Counted from the stretch's first letter, positions 4,145 through 28,006 are shown. The stretch is DNA of 32,000 bases from Candidatus Iainarchaeum sp. (GCA_043808785.1 JAZDEL010000010.1:180001-212000); one strand, 5' to 3'. The notes: generated by a model not told the origin, from the sequence alone. Made by a program: numbers and translations.

Positions 4145-4753
4145 CTATATTGAAAACCAATCTCTATTGCTTAGCCCCTCTTTCCACTGCAAGAACTTTT
4201 TTTGCGTTTCTGAAACCATGTTGACCTCTTTCGTGTCAACAATGTAAGGCCTGCCAATGTTTTTTTCAGAGTCAATCACAACGAGCCAATTTTTCGCGTT
4301 CAAATTAAAACCGTGCTTTGCGGCTTTCGTTCCCTCCTCATTCATTTGATGTACAATGTCATTAAAATTTCTCAGAGTGTGAACTTGAGGATTTAACCCT
4401 CCAGGATTCACGTAATCAACTACTTTAAACTTGCCCCCTTCAGACAGGTCGGTCATTATAATGGAACCTCTCTCCGAAAGCATGAACCTTGGGGGGACAC
4501 TCAATTTGAGTTTTTTCAATTCGCCTAAAATGAAAACTGACCGTGGATATAAGCCTTCAAAGCCTGCCTTGAAAATCTTCTCCACAAAGGGCAGCCTTTT
4601 CCTGCCGATTGTTACTAAAACACGCCGAGACCTCCCGGCAACTCCGCCACCAGCATCCTGCCCGGTCTGTTCAATTGAACATTCAAAAGAATTGCCGCGG
4701 TGGCGTATCAGTCTTGATTTAAGGCTGCCGCCATGGCTTATTATCAGGAGCAT
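4145..4753 (-). CDS. Hypothetical protein (orphan, AT-richer than its surroundings)
   Basis: 202-aa ORF with ordinary soluble-protein composition. AT-rich TATA-like sequence upstream (about 4775-4785). No motif I can name with confidence. Confidence 0.55.
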   Translation of the reverse strand: MLLIISHGGSLKSRLIRHRGNSFECSIEQTGQDAGGGVAGRSRRVLVTIGRKRLPFVEKIFKAGFEGLYPRSVFILGELKKLKLSVPPRFMLSERGSIIMTDLSEGGKFKVVDYVNPGGLNPQVHTLRNFNDIVHQMNEEGTKAAKHGFNLNAKNWLVVIDSEKNIGRPYIVDTKEVNMVSETQKKFLQWKEGLSNRDWFSI

Positions 4754-4900
4754 ACTATAAATACGAGTACAACATATTTATTAGTTTGCATATCGTGCGG
4801 CTCATCCTTTCAGCCCCCGCACCGGCAACCTACTCTCCCGCAACCCTTATTAACCAGAACGCGCATATGCAATAAAGCGCCGGTGATTTGAAACCAAAAC

Positions 4901-4997
4901 AACTTTTCTTTAAAAAAGAAAAGTTTTCAAACTGAAAGTTTGAAAATTTTCGGGCATAGCCCGAAAAGTTGACAAAAGAAACAGTTCGCCCGCGGAC
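4901..4997. repeat. Intergenic array of four hairpins related to the tRNA-Ser intron (opposite orientation)
   Basis: 4901-4925 is the reverse complement of 262-286 (25/25). 4971-4984 is the reverse complement of 248-261 (14/14). The inserted 45 nt (4926-4970) forms two further hairpins (4926-4944; about 4947-4968). A GC palindrome lies at 4985-5000. Confidence 0.9.
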
Positions 4998-5017
4998 GAA
5001 CAATTTGGGTTATTCCC

Positions 5018-5221
5018 ATGCCCGAATGCAAAAAGGAAAAAAACCTGAAGAACTGCACATGCACCTACAAAGGCTGCGCAAGAAAAGGGATGTGCTGCGA
5101 GTGCATAGCGCACCACCGCGAGGCGGGCGAGATTCCCGGCTGCCTCTTTTCAAAGGAAGCGGAACGCTCGTACGACCGCAGCATTGAAAAATTCATCGCC
5201 GATGCGCAGGCGCGCCGCTAA
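5018..5221 (+). CDS. Small cysteine-rich cytoplasmic protein (DUF6485-like family as I recall it)
   Basis: 67 aa with the pattern ECKKE.NLKNCTCTY.GC.RKG.CCECI.HH...GE.PGC.F; 9 Cys in the first 42 residues. Confidence 0.6.
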   Translation: MPECKKEKNLKNCTCTYKGCARKGMCCECIAHHREAGEIPGCLFSKEAERSYDRSIEKFIADAQARR

Positions 5222-10336: not shown

Positions 10337-13300
10337 ATGTGCCGCAGAATGCCGCTTTCGGCGGCTTTCCTTGCGCTGCTCGTTGTTTTTGCAGGGCAGG
10401 CGTGCGCTTACCCGTTGCCTGCCGCAGGCCAGGCAGGCGCCAACTCCGATGCAGGCACGCAGGCATGGGGCACATTCTTCCTGCAGGGCGCCGGAGCCGC
10501 GCCCCTGACCGCCGGCCAAATAATCCTTGCCCATGCATATTCCGACCCCGAACTTTCAAGAACAGCCTCCTCCCTTGAGCGCCTGCACTCAAGCCGCGCA
10601 TATTTCGGCGCCGAAAATTCACTTGCGCAATTCGAAACCCTCTCGAAAATGTTCTCAAGCATTGAAATAAGCCTTGAATGCCCGCGGCAAAGCGGATATT
10701 TCCCCTATCCCTGCGCCAGGAAACAGGGCGAGGATTTCCTGCAGTGCGCGGGCGTTTCCCTTGAGAATGAATTCAGGAAAGCCGATGGTTCCGACACGCG
10801 GATAAAGCACACAATAACCCTGCGCAACCTCACTTCGGAAACGCAGAAGCGCAGCATGAGCATAATGCTAAGCACCGATGCAGCCTATCTCCAGTCGGAC
10901 ACAAACACATTCACCCCTTCCTCGGAGTATCAGCACGTTGCCACAAAATCAGGCAGCATGCGCTTTGAAAATTCCGCTGATGCGGACTTCAACGCATTCA
11001 CGCTTGACTTTACAGTTGACGCTTCCCTCAGGCTTCTTGACAGCGGCAAAAAACAGTTCGGGGTTTACGACTGGAGCGATTTTGAGAAAAGCGGATTTGA
11101 TGCCGATACAGTAATCTACATGCGGAACGGGAAGGCGGTTATGGAAACAATGCTTGAAATATCCCTCCGGCCCGGGGAAACTGTTTTTATAGACCCGAGC
11201 TATGACATGAACAGAAGCTCCGATTTCAATGTCAGGTTTGACGGCGGCACAGCCAGCGACCAGCTCGGGTATACTTATGGCAGCGGCTCCGGAGTCCAGC
11301 TGGTAAACGCAGACGGCGGCGCCTACACAAACGACCTCCTCCTGACGGCCTATCTTGCAAATGTCGGCCAAACCGACAACGGCGCAGTCTACCTCATAAA
11401 AAACATAGACGGCATAACCTCGGGCACAACAAAAGACCTGAACACAAGCTCCAGTTGGGATGTCAGGTTTGCAGGCGGCGCAACCAGCGACCAGCTCGGA
11501 TATACTGAAAATAGCGGCTCCGGAGTCCAGCTGGTAAACGCAGACAACGGCGCCTATTCCAACGACCTCCTCCTGACTGCCATTTATGCAAATGTCGGCA
11601 CCGGCCAAACCGACAACGGCGCAGTCTACCTCATAAAAAACATAGACGGCATAACCTCGGGAACAACAAAGGACCTGAACACAAGCTCCAGTTGGGATGT
11701 CAGGTTTGCAGGCGGCGCAACCAGCGACCAGCTCGGATATACTGAAAATAGCGGCTCCGGAGTCCAGCTGGTAAACGCAGACGGCGGCGCCTACACAAAC
11801 GACCTCCTCCTGACCGCATATGCCGCAAATGTCGGCCAAACCGACAACGGCGCAGTCTACCTCATAAAAAACATAGACGGCATAACCTCGGGCTCAACCA
11901 GCGACCTGAACACAGTCTCCAAGTTCGATGTCAGGTTTGACGGCGGCACAGCCAGCGACCAGCTCGGGTATACTTATGGCAGCGGCTCCGGAGTCCAGCT
12001 GGTAAACGCAGACAACGGCGCCTACACAAACGACCTCCTCCTGACCGCATATGCCGCAAATGTCGGCCAAACCGACAACGGCGCAGTCTACCTCATAAAA
12101 AACATAGACGGCATAACCTCGGGAACAACAAAGGACCTGAACACAAGCTCCAGTTGGGATGTCAGGTGGGACGGCGGCGCGGCCACTGACGAGCTTGGGT
12201 ATACAGGGTATTATACAGGGTCCAGTTATACTTATGGCGGCGGCTCCGGAGTCCAGTTTATAAACGCAGACAACGGCGCCTACACAAACGACCTCCTCCT
12301 GGCAGCCACTCTTGCGGATGTCGGCCAAACCAACAACGGCGCAGTCTACCTCATAAAAAACATAGACGGCATAACCTCGGGAACAACAAAGGACCTGAAC
12401 ACAAGCTCCAGTTGGGATGTCAGGTGGGACGGCGGCACAGCCAGCGAGTATCTCGGAAATACCCGTGGTGACACTGCTGCTAGCGGCAGCTCCGGAGTCC
12501 AGTTTATAAACGCAGACAACGGCGCCTATTCCAACGACCTCCTCCTGACTGCCATTATTGCAGATGTCGGTAGCGGGCAATCAAACAACGGCGCAGTCTA
12601 CCTCATCAGGAACATAGACGGCATAACCTCAGGCTCAACCCGAGACCTGAACAAAGGCACGGATTTCAATGTCAGGTGGGCAGGCGGTGTATCCAACGAT
12701 AATCTTGGAAATACCAATAATAGCGGCTCCGGAGTGCAGTTAGTAAACGCAGACAACGGCGCCTATTCCAACGACCTCCTCCTCACTGCGGTTTATGCAA
12801 CTGTCGGCCAAACCAACAACGGCGCAGTCTACCTCATAAAAAACATAGACGGCATAACCTCGGGCTCAACCAGCGACCTGAACACAGTCTCCAAGTTTGA
12901 TGTCAGGTTTGCAGGCGGCGCAACCAGCGACAAGCTCGGATGTACTGAAAATAGCGGCTCCGGAGTCCAGCTGGTAAACGCAGACGGCGGCGCCTACACA
13001 AACGACCTCCTCCTGACTGCCATTTATGCAAATGTCGGGCAATTCGACAACGGCGCAGCCTACCTCATCAGGAACATAGACGGCATAACCTCAGGCTCAA
13101 CCAGAGACCTGAACAAAGGCACGGATTTCAATGTCAGGTGGGACGGCGGCACAGCCAGCGAAAAGCTTGGATATACTAATACCAGCGGCTCCGGAGTCCA
13201 GCTGGTAAACGCAGACGGCGGCGCCTACACAAACGACCTCCTCCTCACAGCCTATATTGCAGATATCGGCCAAACCGACAACGGCGCAGTCTACCTCATC

Positions 13301-15541
13301 AGAAACATAGACGGCATAACCTCGGGCACAACAAAAGACCTGAACACAAGCTCGGATTTCAATGTCAGGTGGGACGGCGGCGCGGCCAGCGACCAGCTTG
13401 GAGATACTGAAAATAGCGGCTCCGGAGTGCAGTTAGTAAACGCAGACAACGGCGCCTACACAAACGACCTCCTCCTGGCAGCCACTCTTGCGGATGTCGG
13501 CCAAACCGACAACGGCGCAGTCTACCTCATCAGGAATGTGGCTACCGCCCCCAACACCGCCCCCGACGTGAATGTAACCTCCCCCTCGGACGCAAACTAC
13601 CTCTCGCAGTATGCCGGAGGATACGACCATAACGTTGCGCTTGTTTTCAGCGTGCAGGACGCGGACAACGGCATGCTCTATGCGGATATTTACCGTTCCG
13701 CATCCGCGGGCGCGTTCACAACCGCGATAATAAACGACCTGAACCTTAACGATGATGCAAACCTGCCCTATCTCACCTGCGACGACACAACATGGACGGA
13801 TGCAACAACCTGCGTCTTCGACTGGAACGTTGCAGGGGCAGCGGACGGAAACTACTTCATCGATGTGAATGTGTTTGACACTTCCGACCTGAACAAAGTG
13901 GATTCAAGCAATATTTCCTTCATGATTGACAACACGAAGGCAAGCACGAGCTGGGACGGCAACACAACATGGAGCAAGTACGACCAGAACATAACTCTCA
14001 CGTGCACCGATGACGACTCGGGTTGCGCAAGCACTAAGTACAGGCTTGACACCAACGGCGCCTCAACGGTTAGTTATGGTTCGTGGCAAACCTACACAGC
14101 GGCGGGAATACAGGTAACAAACGACGGGAACTTCGCCCTTGACTTCAACAGCACGGATGCCGCGGGCAATGTCGGGGACGTGAACACCAAATACGTGCTC
14201 ATAGACAAGAACGCACCTAGCGTTTCAATAACCTCCCCGGCGGGAGGGGCAACACTGGCATCGTCTTCAGTAACGATTGAATATTCGGGCACTGACACGA
14301 ACAGCGGAATCCGGGCATATTATGTGAAGGCGGATTCGGGGAACTGGTCCGCCAACGGCACAAACACGTCGTACACATTCGCGGCACAATCGAACGGCCA
14401 GCACACATACTATGTTCTTGCGCAGGACATGGCGGACAACAACAGTTCGGATGCGAACGTTACTGTTACAGTAAATGCGTCGAGCACTGACAGTTCCGGC
14501 TCGAGCGGCGTCGGCAAATGCGCCTACCGCGAGGGCACAATCTGCGCGCAGGGCGAGGCTTGCTCTGGATATTGGATTTTGAGCGAGGACAGCACCAGGT
14601 GCTGCAGCGGCACCTGCAGTGTTTCCGCCGGCGGGGGCGAAGGAGAAGGAGGCGGCGGAGGGAAACCGCGCGAGGCGGAATTGAGGGACATAATTACAGT
14701 TGAAAATGCCCAGCAGCTGCTCGGCTATGAGGGCTTGCCCATCCTTGACCAGACAGGGAGTGATGTCGGGCTTAATGCAAAGAAGATCGCCACTGACAAT
14801 TACCTCGGCTTCGTAAGGCACCTCAGGGTGCAGTCTGTCTGGGTAGCATCAAAGGCCGAGAAATACAGGAACACCGTAACCCTTATACTGAAGAACAAAA
14901 GCGGCAGGGAACTGCGAGGCATTGAGCTGTTTGAGGCAATACCAAAAACCTTTGTAGCAAACGCTTCCCTGATAAAGAGCGACAGCAACTTCGTTGTTGT
15001 TGAGGCTGACCCGCTGCTGAAGTTCACAATCGGCGAACTTAAGGCGGGGGAAAGCGCAAGCTCAACATACACATTCGACAGCAACCTTGCAATGGGGCCG
15101 ATAACCGAAGTGCAGTTTGCCGCAGTGCCCGTGCCTGTCGTGCTGCTCGACCTGGAGGCCGATGACGCGTGCATGGGCGTGTACTGCAATGATTTTGACC
15201 CGTGCACAAGGGATTACTGCAAGGCAGGGGGCTGCGAATTTGCGCCAATGGCTGACGGCGCAAAGTGCGGGAATGGAATGGTTTGCAAAGGCGGGGAATG
15301 CCTTGCCAAGGGGCGGAAGCAGCAGGAGCCGCAAGAGCAGGGGCAGGCTGCAGCGGAACCGCAGGAAGTGCAGTTAAGCCAGGCCGCATTGGTGCTGGCT
15401 ATTGCAATCATGGCTGCTGTAATGACGTATTTAAGCGGCAGGGCGAAAGGCGCTGGTTTAAGCGCAAGGGGAAAGAAAGGTGCGGAAGTCCATGGAAAAG
15501 CCGCCCGCTGGGCGCACCCCTGGCGGCCCAAGAAGGATTAA
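10337..15541 (+). CDS. Giant secreted cell-surface protein: signal peptide, 10 FG-GAP-like repeats, Ig-like domains, Cys-rich modules, C-terminal TM anchor
   Basis: 1734 aa. N-terminal signal (..FLALLVVFAGQACA). Ten 77-85-aa repeats with LGYT..SGSGVQLVNADNGAYTNDLLLTA....NGAVYLI, matching FG-GAP/integrin-alpha-like blade logic with a DxNxDG-like loop. Then 3 Ig-like modules (e.g. TLTCTDDDSGCASTKYRLD...). A CARDB/DUF11-like module. The Cys-rich motif CNDFDPCTRDYCKAGGCEF..DGAKC. A TM helix LVLAIAIMAAVMTYL plus a basic tail. Confidence 0.85.
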   Translation: MCRRMPLSAAFLALLVVFAGQACAYPLPAAGQAGANSDAGTQAWGTFFLQGAGAAPLTAGQIILAHAYSDPELSRTASSLERLHSSRAYFGAENSLAQFETLSKMFSSIEISLECPRQSGYFPYPCARKQGEDFLQCAGVSLENEFRKADGSDTRIKHTITLRNLTSETQKRSMSIMLSTDAAYLQSDTNTFTPSSEYQHVATKSGSMRFENSADADFNAFTLDFTVDASLRLLDSGKKQFGVYDWSDFEKSGFDADTVIYMRNGKAVMETMLEISLRPGETVFIDPSYDMNRSSDFNVRFDGGTASDQLGYTYGSGSGVQLVNADGGAYTNDLLLTAYLANVGQTDNGAVYLIKNIDGITSGTTKDLNTSSSWDVRFAGGATSDQLGYTENSGSGVQLVNADNGAYSNDLLLTAIYANVGTGQTDNGAVYLIKNIDGITSGTTKDLNTSSSWDVRFAGGATSDQLGYTENSGSGVQLVNADGGAYTNDLLLTAYAANVGQTDNGAVYLIKNIDGITSGSTSDLNTVSKFDVRFDGGTASDQLGYTYGSGSGVQLVNADNGAYTNDLLLTAYAANVGQTDNGAVYLIKNIDGITSGTTKDLNTSSSWDVRWDGGAATDELGYTGYYTGSSYTYGGGSGVQFINADNGAYTNDLLLAATLADVGQTNNGAVYLIKNIDGITSGTTKDLNTSSSWDVRWDGGTASEYLGNTRGDTAASGSSGVQFINADNGAYSNDLLLTAIIADVGSGQSNNGAVYLIRNIDGITSGSTRDLNKGTDFNVRWAGGVSNDNLGNTNNSGSGVQLVNADNGAYSNDLLLTAVYATVGQTNNGAVYLIKNIDGITSGSTSDLNTVSKFDVRFAGGATSDKLGCTENSGSGVQLVNADGGAYTNDLLLTAIYANVGQFDNGAAYLIRNIDGITSGSTRDLNKGTDFNVRWDGGTASEKLGYTNTSGSGVQLVNADGGAYTNDLLLTAYIADIGQTDNGAVYLIRNIDGITSGTTKDLNTSSDFNVRWDGGAASDQLGDTENSGSGVQLVNADNGAYTNDLLLAATLADVGQTDNGAVYLIRNVATAPNTAPDVNVTSPSDANYLSQYAGGYDHNVALVFSVQDADNGMLYADIYRSASAGAFTTAIINDLNLNDDANLPYLTCDDTTWTDATTCVFDWNVAGAADGNYFIDVNVFDTSDLNKVDSSNISFMIDNTKASTSWDGNTTWSKYDQNITLTCTDDDSGCASTKYRLDTNGASTVSYGSWQTYTAAGIQVTNDGNFALDFNSTDAAGNVGDVNTKYVLIDKNAPSVSITSPAGGATLASSSVTIEYSGTDTNSGIRAYYVKADSGNWSANGTNTSYTFAAQSNGQHTYYVLAQDMADNNSSDANVTVTVNASSTDSSGSSGVGKCAYREGTICAQGEACSGYWILSEDSTRCCSGTCSVSAGGGEGEGGGGGKPREAELRDIITVENAQQLLGYEGLPILDQTGSDVGLNAKKIATDNYLGFVRHLRVQSVWVASKAEKYRNTVTLILKNKSGRELRGIELFEAIPKTFVANASLIKSDSNFVVVEADPLLKFTIGELKAGESASSTYTFDSNLAMGPITEVQFAAVPVPVVLLDLEADDACMGVYCNDFDPCTRDYCKAGGCEFAPMADGAKCGNGMVCKGGECLAKGRKQQEPQEQGQAAAEPQEVQLSQAALVLAIAIMAAVMTYLSGRAKGAGLSARGKKGAEVHGKAARWAHPWRPKKD
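11222..13536 (+). repeat. Tandem coding repeat array, 231-255 bp period, 10 units
   Basis: Long exact DNA identities between units, e.g. 11435-11545 = 11672-11782 (111 nt). Open antisense frames are a by-product. Confidence 0.9.
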
Positions 15542-27810: not shown

Positions 27811-27870
27811 GATTTTTGCCCAAGCAAAAATCCTTCTTTTTGTAAACTTTTTCTTGCAAAGAAAAAGTTT
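27811..27870. terminator. Two perfect palindromic hairpins between the convergent antiporter gene and tRNA-Trp
   Basis: GATTTTTGC-CCAA-GCAAAAATC (27811-27832). AAACTTTTTCTT-GCA-AAGAAAAAGTTT (27844-27870). T5 runs on both strands give bidirectional terminator logic. The second belongs to the AACTTTT hairpin family. Confidence 0.6.
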
Positions 27871-28006
27871 GGGGACAGAGGGATTTGAACCCCCATCAGC
27901 TGGTCGCTCCAACTTTTTGCAAACTTTTGGGAAGCGAAACTGCAAAAGTTTCGCGCTCCTAAAAGTTTCTGGAGCCAGCCGCACTGCCGGGTTATGCTAT
28001 GTCCCC
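27870..28006 (-). tRNA. tRNA-Trp(CCA) with 64-nt intron (27905-27968) at the canonical 37/38 position
   Basis: Minus-strand read: acceptor GGGGACA/TGTCCCC, discriminator A. Anticodon stem GCTGG/CCAGC, loop CT-CCA-GA. T-arm GGGGG-TTCAAAT-CCCTC. Strict BHB: CTCC/GGAG central helix, bulges AGA and CGA, outer helix AACTTTT/AAAAGTT. Confidence 0.85.

Follow-up and report, generated by a model that had tools for sequence, protein, structure and literature searches.

The hairpin that recurs in and beside the tRNA genes of a 32,000-nt stretch of Candidatus Iainarchaeum sp. DNA (GCA_043808785.1 JAZDEL010000010.1:180001-212000, hereafter the window) is one part of a conserved three-part cassette. The first part is an AT-rich hairpin of the form AAC-Y8-N3-R8-GTT, in which the 5' arm is all pyrimidine and the 3' arm all purine. 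After a linker of 1–9 nt there follows a purine tail, which mirrors the hairpin 3' arm and is not complementary to it, and then a GC hairpin which is free in sequence and covaries. The mirror-repeat tail, overlooked in an earlier note on this DNA, is the most unusual feature of the cassette. From its placement and sequence, the cassette may be a conserved, recombining cis module of stable-RNA precursors that would fold directly against the mature RNA end, a reading that we prefer tentatively.

The repeat described in the earlier note was confirmed by direct comparison. The reverse complement of positions 248–287 in the tRNA-Ser intron (CAACTTTTCTTTAAAAAAGAAAAGTTGACAAAAGAAACAG) is identical in 40/40 positions to 4900–4925 joined to 4971–4984 on the opposite strand, and this second copy is split by 45 nt (4926–4970, TTCAAACTGAAAGTTTGAAAATTTTCGGGCATAGCCCGAAAAGTT) that hold two more hairpins (4926–4944 and 4945–4970), with GAAAAGTT at both borders of the interruption (4918–4925 and 4963–4970). 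Both 40-nt copies are followed by a GC-rich palindromic hairpin, and the CAA(C/TT)TG segment reported there is the 3' strand of the CAG...CTG closing stem of this second hairpin. The pattern AACTTTT-N11-AAAAGTT was found at four sites in the window (170, 262, 4901 and 27845) versus 0.00 expected from 100 shuffles; these sites include the related hairpins that had been noticed at 170–194 and abutting the tRNA-Trp 3' end. A relaxed stem-base pattern gave 11 overlapping matches versus 0.08 expected, about seven of them at tRNA-linked or cassette sites, and added as members 346–399 (tRNA-Ser 3' trailer), 4945–4970 and 27911–27950 (within the tRNA-Trp intron). The features concerned are the following, where tail' stands for the tail complement and the A and B types are those defined further below.

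130–343, + strand: tRNA-Ser(GCU), from ARAGORN with introns; orthologs aligned
170–208, + strand: cassette copy 1, at the 5' splice site of the intron, with arm and tail both of type B; hairpin AACTTTTTCTT-AAA-AAGAAAAAGTT (170–194), then linker and mirror tail GGCAAAAAGAACAG (195–208)
209–247, + strand: two GC-rich hairpins in the middle of the tRNA-Ser intron, TCCGCGCttgtGCGCGGA and CCCGCCttcGGCGGG
248–287, − strand: cassette copy 2, inverted, on the intron 3' side, the recurring 40-mer; tail' CTGTTTCTTTTGTC (248–261) and hairpin (262–286)
346–408, + strand: degenerate cassette within the 3' trailer of tRNA-Ser; a GC hairpin is nested in the stem base AACCTTTT...AAAAGGTT, and tail-like GCGAAAAAC follows
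4901–4925, + strand: cassette copy 3, hairpin, type A
4926–4970, + strand: long-form extension; hairpin A TTCAAACTgaaAGTTTGAA (4926–4944) and hairpin B AATTTTCGGGCataGCCCGAAAAGTT (4945–4970)
4971–5007, + strand: mirror tail of copy 3, GACAAAAGAAACAG (4971–4984), then GC hairpin TTCGCCCGCGGACGAA and CAATTTG
5018–5221, + strand: DUF6485 gene, 67 aa, Cys-rich (Pfam PF20095, E = 6.9e-10)
27811–27869, − strand: cassette copy 4, directly past the tRNA-Trp 3' end; in + strand coordinates, hairpin 27845–27869, tail' 27833–27844 and second hairpin GATTTTTGCccaaGCAAAAATC 27811–27832
27870–28006, − strand: tRNA-Trp(CCA) (Rfam tRNA, 50.5 bits; ARAGORN)

A pattern scan with AACTTTTYYTT-N3-AARRAAAAGTT, one genome per species, gave at least 113 loci; the retrieved comparison loci are numbered L003 to L136. 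In the archaeal matches the hairpin is followed by N(1-2)CAAAAGAAAC, which lay outside the search pattern, and then by a GC-rich hairpin. Among the matches listed, the hosts are Iainarchaeum/Diapherotrites metagenome-assembled genomes (MAGs), the complete genome GW2011_AR10, and Micrarchaeota, Pacearchaeota, Aenigmarchaeota and Altiarchaeota MAGs, with MAG JBDRDO01 as the closest relative with several loci (IMPDH 86% identical). A metagenome scan with the tail included in the pattern added 18 loci, at least nine of them at tRNA intron 5' splice sites, and the tail and second hairpin recur in independent NCBI, ENA, JGI and Logan assemblies. Bacterial pattern matches (cyanobacteria, Bacteroidota and others) had unrelated flanks and lacked the tail, and viral contigs yielded one AT-rich, tail-less chance match and no copy with a tail. 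Rfam, searched at gathering and permissive thresholds with 4700–5100 and 24 related loci, returned only tRNAs and SRP (signal recognition particle) RNA and nothing at the cassette, and no account of it was found in the literature searched for the sequence itself, DPANN tRNA introns, archaeal mirror repeats or triplexes, and Diapherotrites introns. The cassette is a new, tRNA-linked, A/T-rich variant of the intrastrand-triplex/REP-like class, as well as a new intron/trailer family.

The three sequence blocks of hairpin and tail vary in concert. In type A the 3' arm AAAGAAAA is accompanied by the tail AAAAGAAA, and in type B the 3' arm AAGAAAAA by the tail AAAAAGAA; 46 modules were A/A, seven B/B and none mixed (Fisher p = 6.5e-9). 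Both arms and the tail change together in more than ten variants, and at least eight rarer arms each have their own mirrored tail, as exemplified by the arm/tail pairs AAGAAAAGG / GAAAAGAA (SRP RNA flank), AAAGAAAGG / GAAAGAAA, AAAGAAAAAG / CAAAAAGAAA, AAAAGAAG / CAAGAAAA, AGAAAGAAAAA / AAAAAGAAAGAG, AAAAAGAGAAAAG / CAAAAGAGAAAAA (a tRNA-His trailer) and AAAAAAGAAAA / AAAAGAAAAAA. When 52 modules of equal geometry were compared, the hairpin was 97.6% paired with 41 double changes. The parallel complement of 5' arm and tail held in 95.5% of cells in register versus 54–74% when slid by 1–3 columns, and 29 double changes were counted between these two strands versus 9.8 in shuffles (0/500). Distinct variants and changes at orthologous sites are stronger evidence of covariation than these shuffle statistics. 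The orthologous tRNA-Ser(GCU) intron of five genomes is found in three states (type B, type A and CCTTTCTTT/AAAGAAAGG/GAAAGAAA), each internally consistent, and in the tRNA-Ser intron of L136 each of two tails fits its own hairpin and is not complementary to the other tail. In a comparison bearing on RNA-level versus DNA-level folding, G.U versus C.A mismatches in imperfect hairpins numbered 8 versus 3, few and in part artefacts.

Neither duplication nor inversion can give rise to a mirror repeat of a homopurine arm, and a dimeric protein site is a poor match for it; the tail follows the sequence rule for a third strand that folds back on the hairpin. The order of parts, namely pyrimidine stem, loop, purine stem, loop and mirror third stem, is that of the intrastrand triplex motif of the PIT (potential intrastrand triplex)/BoxC/TMECO class. 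We infer from the sequences that hairpin and tail would fold as an intrastrand triple helix. Read from hairpin to tail this would be a purine-motif triplex of A.A-T and G.G-C triples, and read from tail' to hairpin a pyrimidine-motif triplex of U.A-U and C+.G-C triples.

One variant departs from the mirror arrangement. Past tRNA-Ala in L127 (3665–3702) and L133 (321–358), and at the same position in L136 (4114–4151), the sequence reads GCCTTTTTTCC-tgc-GGGAAAAAAGC-ctc-GGGAAAAAA, and here the arm recurs in the second purine run as a direct and not as a mirror repeat.

For the analysis of placement, a module was taken as a pyrimidine/purine hairpin with its mirrored tail, and 115 of these were present in 0.94 Mb of retrieved DNA. 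Forty-six lie in tRNAs called by ARAGORN or at most 12 nt from them, tRNAs and their 12-nt flanks making up about 1% of the bases. They are found at the intron start (25 modules), on the intron 3' side (two), directly past the tRNA 3' end, often at 0 nt (13), and directly before the tRNA 5' end (six). The hairpin adjoins the mature RNA, usually at 0–4 nt, with the tail directed away from it, in 46/46 of these modules; the RNA boundary, not the way in which transcription runs, thus determines the polarity. In addition, a variant cassette starts at the last base of SRP RNA (L067 5897–6167, Rfam 121.6 bits). Many typical introns of 61–68 nt at cassette loci consist of the hairpin, the tail, the GC hairpin, a few closing bases and little else. 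The tRNA-Cys 5' leaders with cassettes start at TATA boxes 95–125 nt upstream, and since these cassettes lie downstream of the boxes they are probably read through. A promoter function of the hairpin was rejected, the tRNA promoters here being ordinary TTTAAA/TTATAA boxes about 30 nt upstream and unlike the cassette.

Both introns of the window are canonical bulge-helix-bulge (BHB) introns at position 37/38, with two 3-nt bulges, a 4-bp helix and outer helices. By BHB geometry the tRNA-Ser intron spans 169–297, versus 169–287 by ARAGORN, which is the sole correction to the sequence statements of the earlier note. In hand-drawn folds the tRNA-Ser BHB has the central helix CUGC 163–166 / GCAG 292–295, the bulges U-A-c and c-g-A, and the outer helix AACU 170–173 / AGUU 288–291, and the tRNA-Trp BHB has CUCC/GGAG, the bulges AGa and cgA, and the outer helix AACU/AGUU. 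These folds bear out the common AACT/AGTT helix that had been proposed to flank the BHB; the two introns also have in common the 3' bulge CGA, and in both of them AACU, the first four bases of the hairpin, forms the BHB outer helix. By pattern matches, the tRNA-Trp intron (27904–27968, minus strand) is a single family-type stem-loop with the base AACUUUU/AAAAGUU. A comparable BHB at tRNA 3' or 5' ends was considered and rejected, since no second bulge 4 bp away could be drawn, so that canonical endonuclease recognition at tRNA ends is not supported.

The part beyond the tail is likewise structured. In about 35 of 53 modules the 36 nt past the tail fold into perfect stems of 7–10 bp whose sequences are unrelated, which points to selection on a single-stranded fold. 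The 45-nt unit of the window (4926–4970), which the earlier note took as an insertion flanked by an 8-nt target-site duplication, also follows the hairpin after two tRNA-Gly genes in a relative MAG (L050); compared with the window, hairpin A of the L050 copies differs by one compensatory pair and hairpin B by three, with zero disruptive changes. The unit is a conserved long form. Hairpin B (4945–4970), AATTTTC-GGGCataGCCC-GAAAAGTT, has the shared stem base and belongs to the family too, and the position of GAAAAGTT reads GGAAAGTT in the conserved L050 copies. With hairpin B a member of the family, the repeated GAAAAGTT is probably the family stem base rather than a transposition footprint; microhomology recombination would explain the repeat equally well, and a target-site duplication is not supported. 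Similar nesting was seen in the tRNA-Ser trailer (346–399), where the ortholog L067 has an intact cassette in place of the degenerate copy, and in the tRNA-Trp intron; the short duplication AGTTG flanks the second intron hairpin. Recombination via a common stem base explains these junctions no less well than a transposase footprint would.

In our preferred reading the cassette would act as a self-contained fold in the primary transcript or in a displaced DNA strand. The role of the fold would be to stop the tRNA body from base-pairing with flanking or intron sequence and to offer the cleavage site to end-processing and splicing nucleases, and in introns the cassette would supply the outer helix of the splice motif. 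Copies would spread and be reshuffled by recombination via the shared stem base AACTTTT/AAAAGTT, and such exchange would account for the 40/40 identity, for the nesting in the long form and for gains and losses that differ between lineages. Should the structural reading be right, the cassette is a sequence-defined, widely conserved candidate for a biologically used archaeal triple helix, and the introns, trailers and leaders of many DPANN tRNAs, together with the SRP RNA flank, are built from one module. This would bear on the origin and spread of archaeal tRNA introns and on the recognition of pre-tRNA ends in lineages with broad-specificity splicing endonucleases. A bolder and more doubtful extension is that DPANN archaea use an intramolecular triple-helix cassette as their standard stable-RNA boundary module, many tRNA introns being such a module placed after the 5' exon. 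If this were true, a single structure would offer both ends of a tRNA and its splice sites to the processing machinery, intron origin would be linked to gene-end modules, and the cassette would provide the first long purine-/pyrimidine-motif triplex with a conserved cellular role in archaea.

Several points weigh against a general boundary module. The function ascribed to the cassette is deduced from placement and covariation. All comparison loci were found via the hairpin pattern, so that the counts say nothing on the fraction of tRNAs with a cassette or on its genome-wide distribution, and in the window tRNA-Leu is without one. Shared ancestry of the copies inflates the covariation counts, and the shuffle statistics overstate independence. 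The proposed link of the hairpin to tRNA genes stands for introns and tRNA flanks, but 69/115 modules are not beside an ARAGORN tRNA: these include tRNAs missed by ARAGORN, copies directly past protein-gene stop codons in AT-rich relatives, and a conserved AGAGCGGGCTTCCGGTA unit. No mature RNA was found upstream of the 4901 hairpin with Rfam, and this copy breaks the boundary rule. Finally, in the commonest orientation RNA is limited to a purine-motif triplex, which to our knowledge is not an established stable RNA fold.

The serious rival, somewhat unlikely in our estimate and backed by the turnover of copies, is a selfish interspersed repeat of the REP (repetitive extragenic palindromic) or BoxC(PIT) kind, or a miniature inverted-repeat transposable element (MITE). 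It would be mobilised by a structure-specific recombinase or transposase, for which the triplex-capable fold would be the recognition structure, and would survive at harmless sites such as introns, trailers and intergenic DNA. Copies do turn over. The exact 40-mer of the window also forms a tRNA-Arg trailer in L113, so that identical sequences occupy non-orthologous sites in two genomes. The second intron hairpin is found in the window and L136 (2/5 orthologs) and is absent from L067, L128 and AR10. Tail and hairpin units occur in tandem, with five units in L073 and three tails in AR10, and the 45-nt long form adds nesting. In architecture the cassette also corresponds to the TMECO/BoxC intrastrand-triplex repeats of E. 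coli, which have been linked with rearrangement of the genome (PMC4666352), and the inverted pair in the tRNA-Ser intron resembles a REPIN. A selfish repeat does not account, however, for the conservation of hairpin and tail across several DPANN phyla and at orthologous intron positions, where the triple covariation indicates purifying selection and not decay. A two-ended transposon would not predict that in 46/46 modules the hairpin is turned to the mature RNA, whichever side of it they lie on; the solo copies (4901, 27845, L018, L113 and others) are one-ended and without terminal inverted repeats, and an inverted pair occurs in the Ser intron alone. The supposed target-site duplication is more probably the stem base common to the family, and viral contigs gave no tail-bearing copy. 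No candidate transposase was identified, the retrieved loci not permitting a search for one.

The suggestion of the earlier note that the hairpin is a mobile or recombining element tied to tRNA introns is thus retained in part: a multi-copy structured family with turnover by recombination is what was found, but a classic MITE does not fit. A MITE would leave unexplained the cross-phylum conservation, the fixed hairpin-proximal polarity and the arm/arm/tail covariation. Of the empty sites sought in relatives, presence and absence were found at orthologous tRNA-Ser introns; the DUF6485 flank of L115 does not qualify as a strict empty site, since the gene beside it is not an ortholog.

It is quite unlikely that the cassette is a bidirectional transcription terminator or insulator of stable-RNA and some protein genes, in which the T-tracts of arm and tail complement would stop the archaeal polymerase both ways. 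Such a role would suit the cassettes immediately past tRNA and SRP RNA 3' ends, those at protein stop codons in AT-rich relatives (L038, L049, L096), and the region separating tRNA-Trp from the convergent Na+/H+ exchanger gene, which has five T5 runs on the + strand; read from tail' to hairpin, moreover, a GC hairpin is followed by a U-tract. Runs of T5, T4, T4 and T6 nevertheless lie within the tRNA-Ser intron, and others in the tRNA-Cys leaders downstream of promoters, where they must be read through, whereas archaeal oligo-T terminators are expected to be excluded from essential transcribed interiors; T4–T6 runs were found in both. None of the approximately 30 protein genes of the window is followed by a copy, the 4901 copy lies between divergent genes, and a terminator gives no reason for the tail to mirror the arm. 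A generic terminator palindrome, which the earlier note had held open, is unlikely on the same evidence of T-runs in transcribed interiors and of window protein genes without copies.

Very improbable is the proposal that the 4901 copy serves the DUF6485 gene specifically, be it as a structured 5' leader or in regulation. The cassette does lie 34 nt upstream of the start codon, and in L114 (94% identity) the region upstream of DUF6485 keeps the tail, the GC hairpin and CAATTTG with a different hairpin. The L114 cassette, though, is directly past the stop codon of a co-directional upstream gene, and the same cassette flanks unrelated tRNAs. In L115 (86% identity), as in other genomes of the L115/L117 type, the gene has a 53-nt upstream region with no cassette (the neighbouring gene also differs), so that the cassette is dispensable as a leader and the assignment made earlier does not hold. 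A hidden tRNA half or non-coding RNA at 4790–4900 that would end at the hairpin was also considered and rejected, with no tRNA-like or C/D-box features, no conserved homolog and an unconvincing fold. Most likely the 4901 copy is a relocated one in a rearranging intergenic region between two divergent genes, and it probably has no specific tie to the DUF6485 gene.

A chance low-complexity palindrome or an assembly chimera, which the AT-rich, low-complexity hairpin and the tail-less matches in unrelated bacteria might suggest, is effectively refuted by the four observed sites versus none expected in shuffles and by the recurrence of the unsearched tail and second hairpin in NCBI, ENA, JGI and Logan assemblies.

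Among known systems, the BoxC/PIT/TMECO repeats of Enterobacteria are multi-copy, intergenic intrastrand-triplex repeats, the triplex of TMECO having been shown in vitro (Holder et al. 2015, PMC4666352). Like the cassette, they have the order pyrimidine stem, loop, purine stem, short loop and second purine stem as potential third strand, are multi-copy and intergenic, and are associated with locus rearrangement. TMECO is G/C-rich (CCCTCNCCC...GGGNGAGGG), with no reported link to tRNAs or RNA boundaries, whereas the cassette is A/T-rich; the cassette further differs in its covarying GC hairpin, its fixed polarity at mature RNA ends and its location in tRNA introns, and its triplex is a predicted one. 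REP, BIME (bacterial interspersed mosaic element) and REPIN sequences resemble the cassette as short palindromes just past genes, sometimes in inverted pairs, which form part of transcribed 3' regions and have evolved through duplication and recombination, but REPs are species-specific and tied to the RAYT (REP-associated tyrosine transposase) enzyme, and they have neither a third-strand tail nor a preference for tRNA exon boundaries.

With respect to archaeal BHB introns and intron transposition (Thermoproteales; Caldiarchaeum model, PMC3293823), the introns of the window are likewise canonical BHB introns, and, as in reported archaeal intron families, related sequence is common to introns of different tRNAs and to non-intron loci. 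Unlike those families, the cassette is also a 3' trailer, a 5' leader and an SRP RNA flank, crosses phyla and has a mirror-repeat tail, and neither an element bearing a recombinase nor a viral or plasmid relative was found. In the split tRNA genes of Nanoarchaeum and Caldivirga a defined structured sequence also lies directly past the tRNA 5' half and contributes to the BHB; here, by contrast, the halves are contiguous in one gene, and neither separate half-genes nor intron-internal promoters were found. Where the cassette reads from tail' to hairpin (tRNA-Cys leaders, intron 3' side), a tRNA cleavage site is directly preceded by two strands rich in U and one rich in A, an arrangement that recalls, by analogy only, the MALAT1/MEN-beta triple helix upstream of a tRNA-like RNase P site; for these copies U.A-U triples and one C+.G-C triple are predicted. 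The topology of the cassette differs, being third strand, linker and hairpin and not an ENE (expression and nuclear retention element) internal loop clamping a tail, and most copies have the opposite orientation.

Apart from its possible function, the cassette is of practical use as a strong marker of tRNA genes, disrupted or intron-containing, that standard tools overlook in DPANN MAGs, and it helps to flag contigs binned to the wrong taxon. Archaeal intron-containing tRNAs with the cassette were seen on contigs filed as bacteria or methanogens, namely L003, L011, L028 and L088 (JAFCBY01 'Falkowbacteria'), L038 and L096 (CAYHXI01 'Methanosarcinales'), and L020, L068 and L091 ('Chloroflexi/Chloroflexota'); the bins or labels of these contigs are probably wrong. 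The tRNA-Trp of L028 is homologous to that of the window.

The AGAGCGGGCTTCCGGTA unit mentioned above is conserved in five assemblies (L011 7830–8000, minus strand; L073 3024–3224; L088 3060–3260; L091 1395–1595; L130 784–984) and lies in divergent intergenic regions. It consists of a TATA-like box, about 8 nt, AGAGCGGGCTTCCGGTA and then the cassette hairpin and tail. The units gave no Rfam match and could be small RNA genes beginning at the cassette, or short 5' exons.

Larger repeats were also observed at some loci. A MAG labelled 'uncultured bacterium' has the hairpin and tail' inside a repeat of at least about 300 nt, present in at least six copies (L062 400–720, 2100–2430 and 5130–5460; L015 5100–5400, 5500–5800 and 7600–7900) with the conserved flanks …GGAAGGGGTTTCATTCGGCAGGTG… / …GAGAACCGGTTCAC…ATGAATCGCCCGCCGA…, which may be a larger structured or mobile RNA element. 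At L039 6880–7103 a unit of about 40 nt (…CCTCAAAATTCGCGCCGTAAAACAGCAGCGCAAC) occurs twice, at a spacing of about 165 nt, with the cassette in between. The Nostocales loci L014, L019, L048, L078, L079, L082 and L104 contain a separate repeat around AACTTTTCCTTGCCAAAGAAAAGTT, with flanks …GAGAGTTTCATC / TC(A/C)GCAGCTTT…, which lacks a mirrored tail and has no relation to the archaeal cassette.

The window has a G+C content of 53%, and its encoded proteins include IMPDH, CysRS, Trp/Tyr-RS, Fic and ArsP; the IMPDH matches at 100% identity an NCBI protein of a 'Candidatus Diapherotrites archaeon' MAG. Two copies of GGTTCCTGCGGAAACCATA (9–27 and 61–79), 52 nt apart, lie just upstream of the tRNA-Ser promoter region, and a related GGGTTTCCGCTTCGCGGAAATC hairpin is at 481–505; together they could be the end of a repeat array or a separate small hairpin family. 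Downstream of the tRNA-Ser trailer, GAAAAACGTTAGCCTGCAAAA is duplicated (403–423 and 455–475) in a way that resembles the tandem tail and hairpin units of L073. The nested interiors of the tRNA-Ser trailer hairpin (350–395) and of the tRNA-Trp intron (27925–27960) have in common GGAGCG…C(G/A)CTTCC, which suggests a second recurrent sub-module inside the family stem base. Finally, an open reading frame of 1734 aa at 10337–15541 contains about ten tandem repeats of 231 nt (77 aa), 60–99% identical, and probably encodes a large repetitive surface protein.

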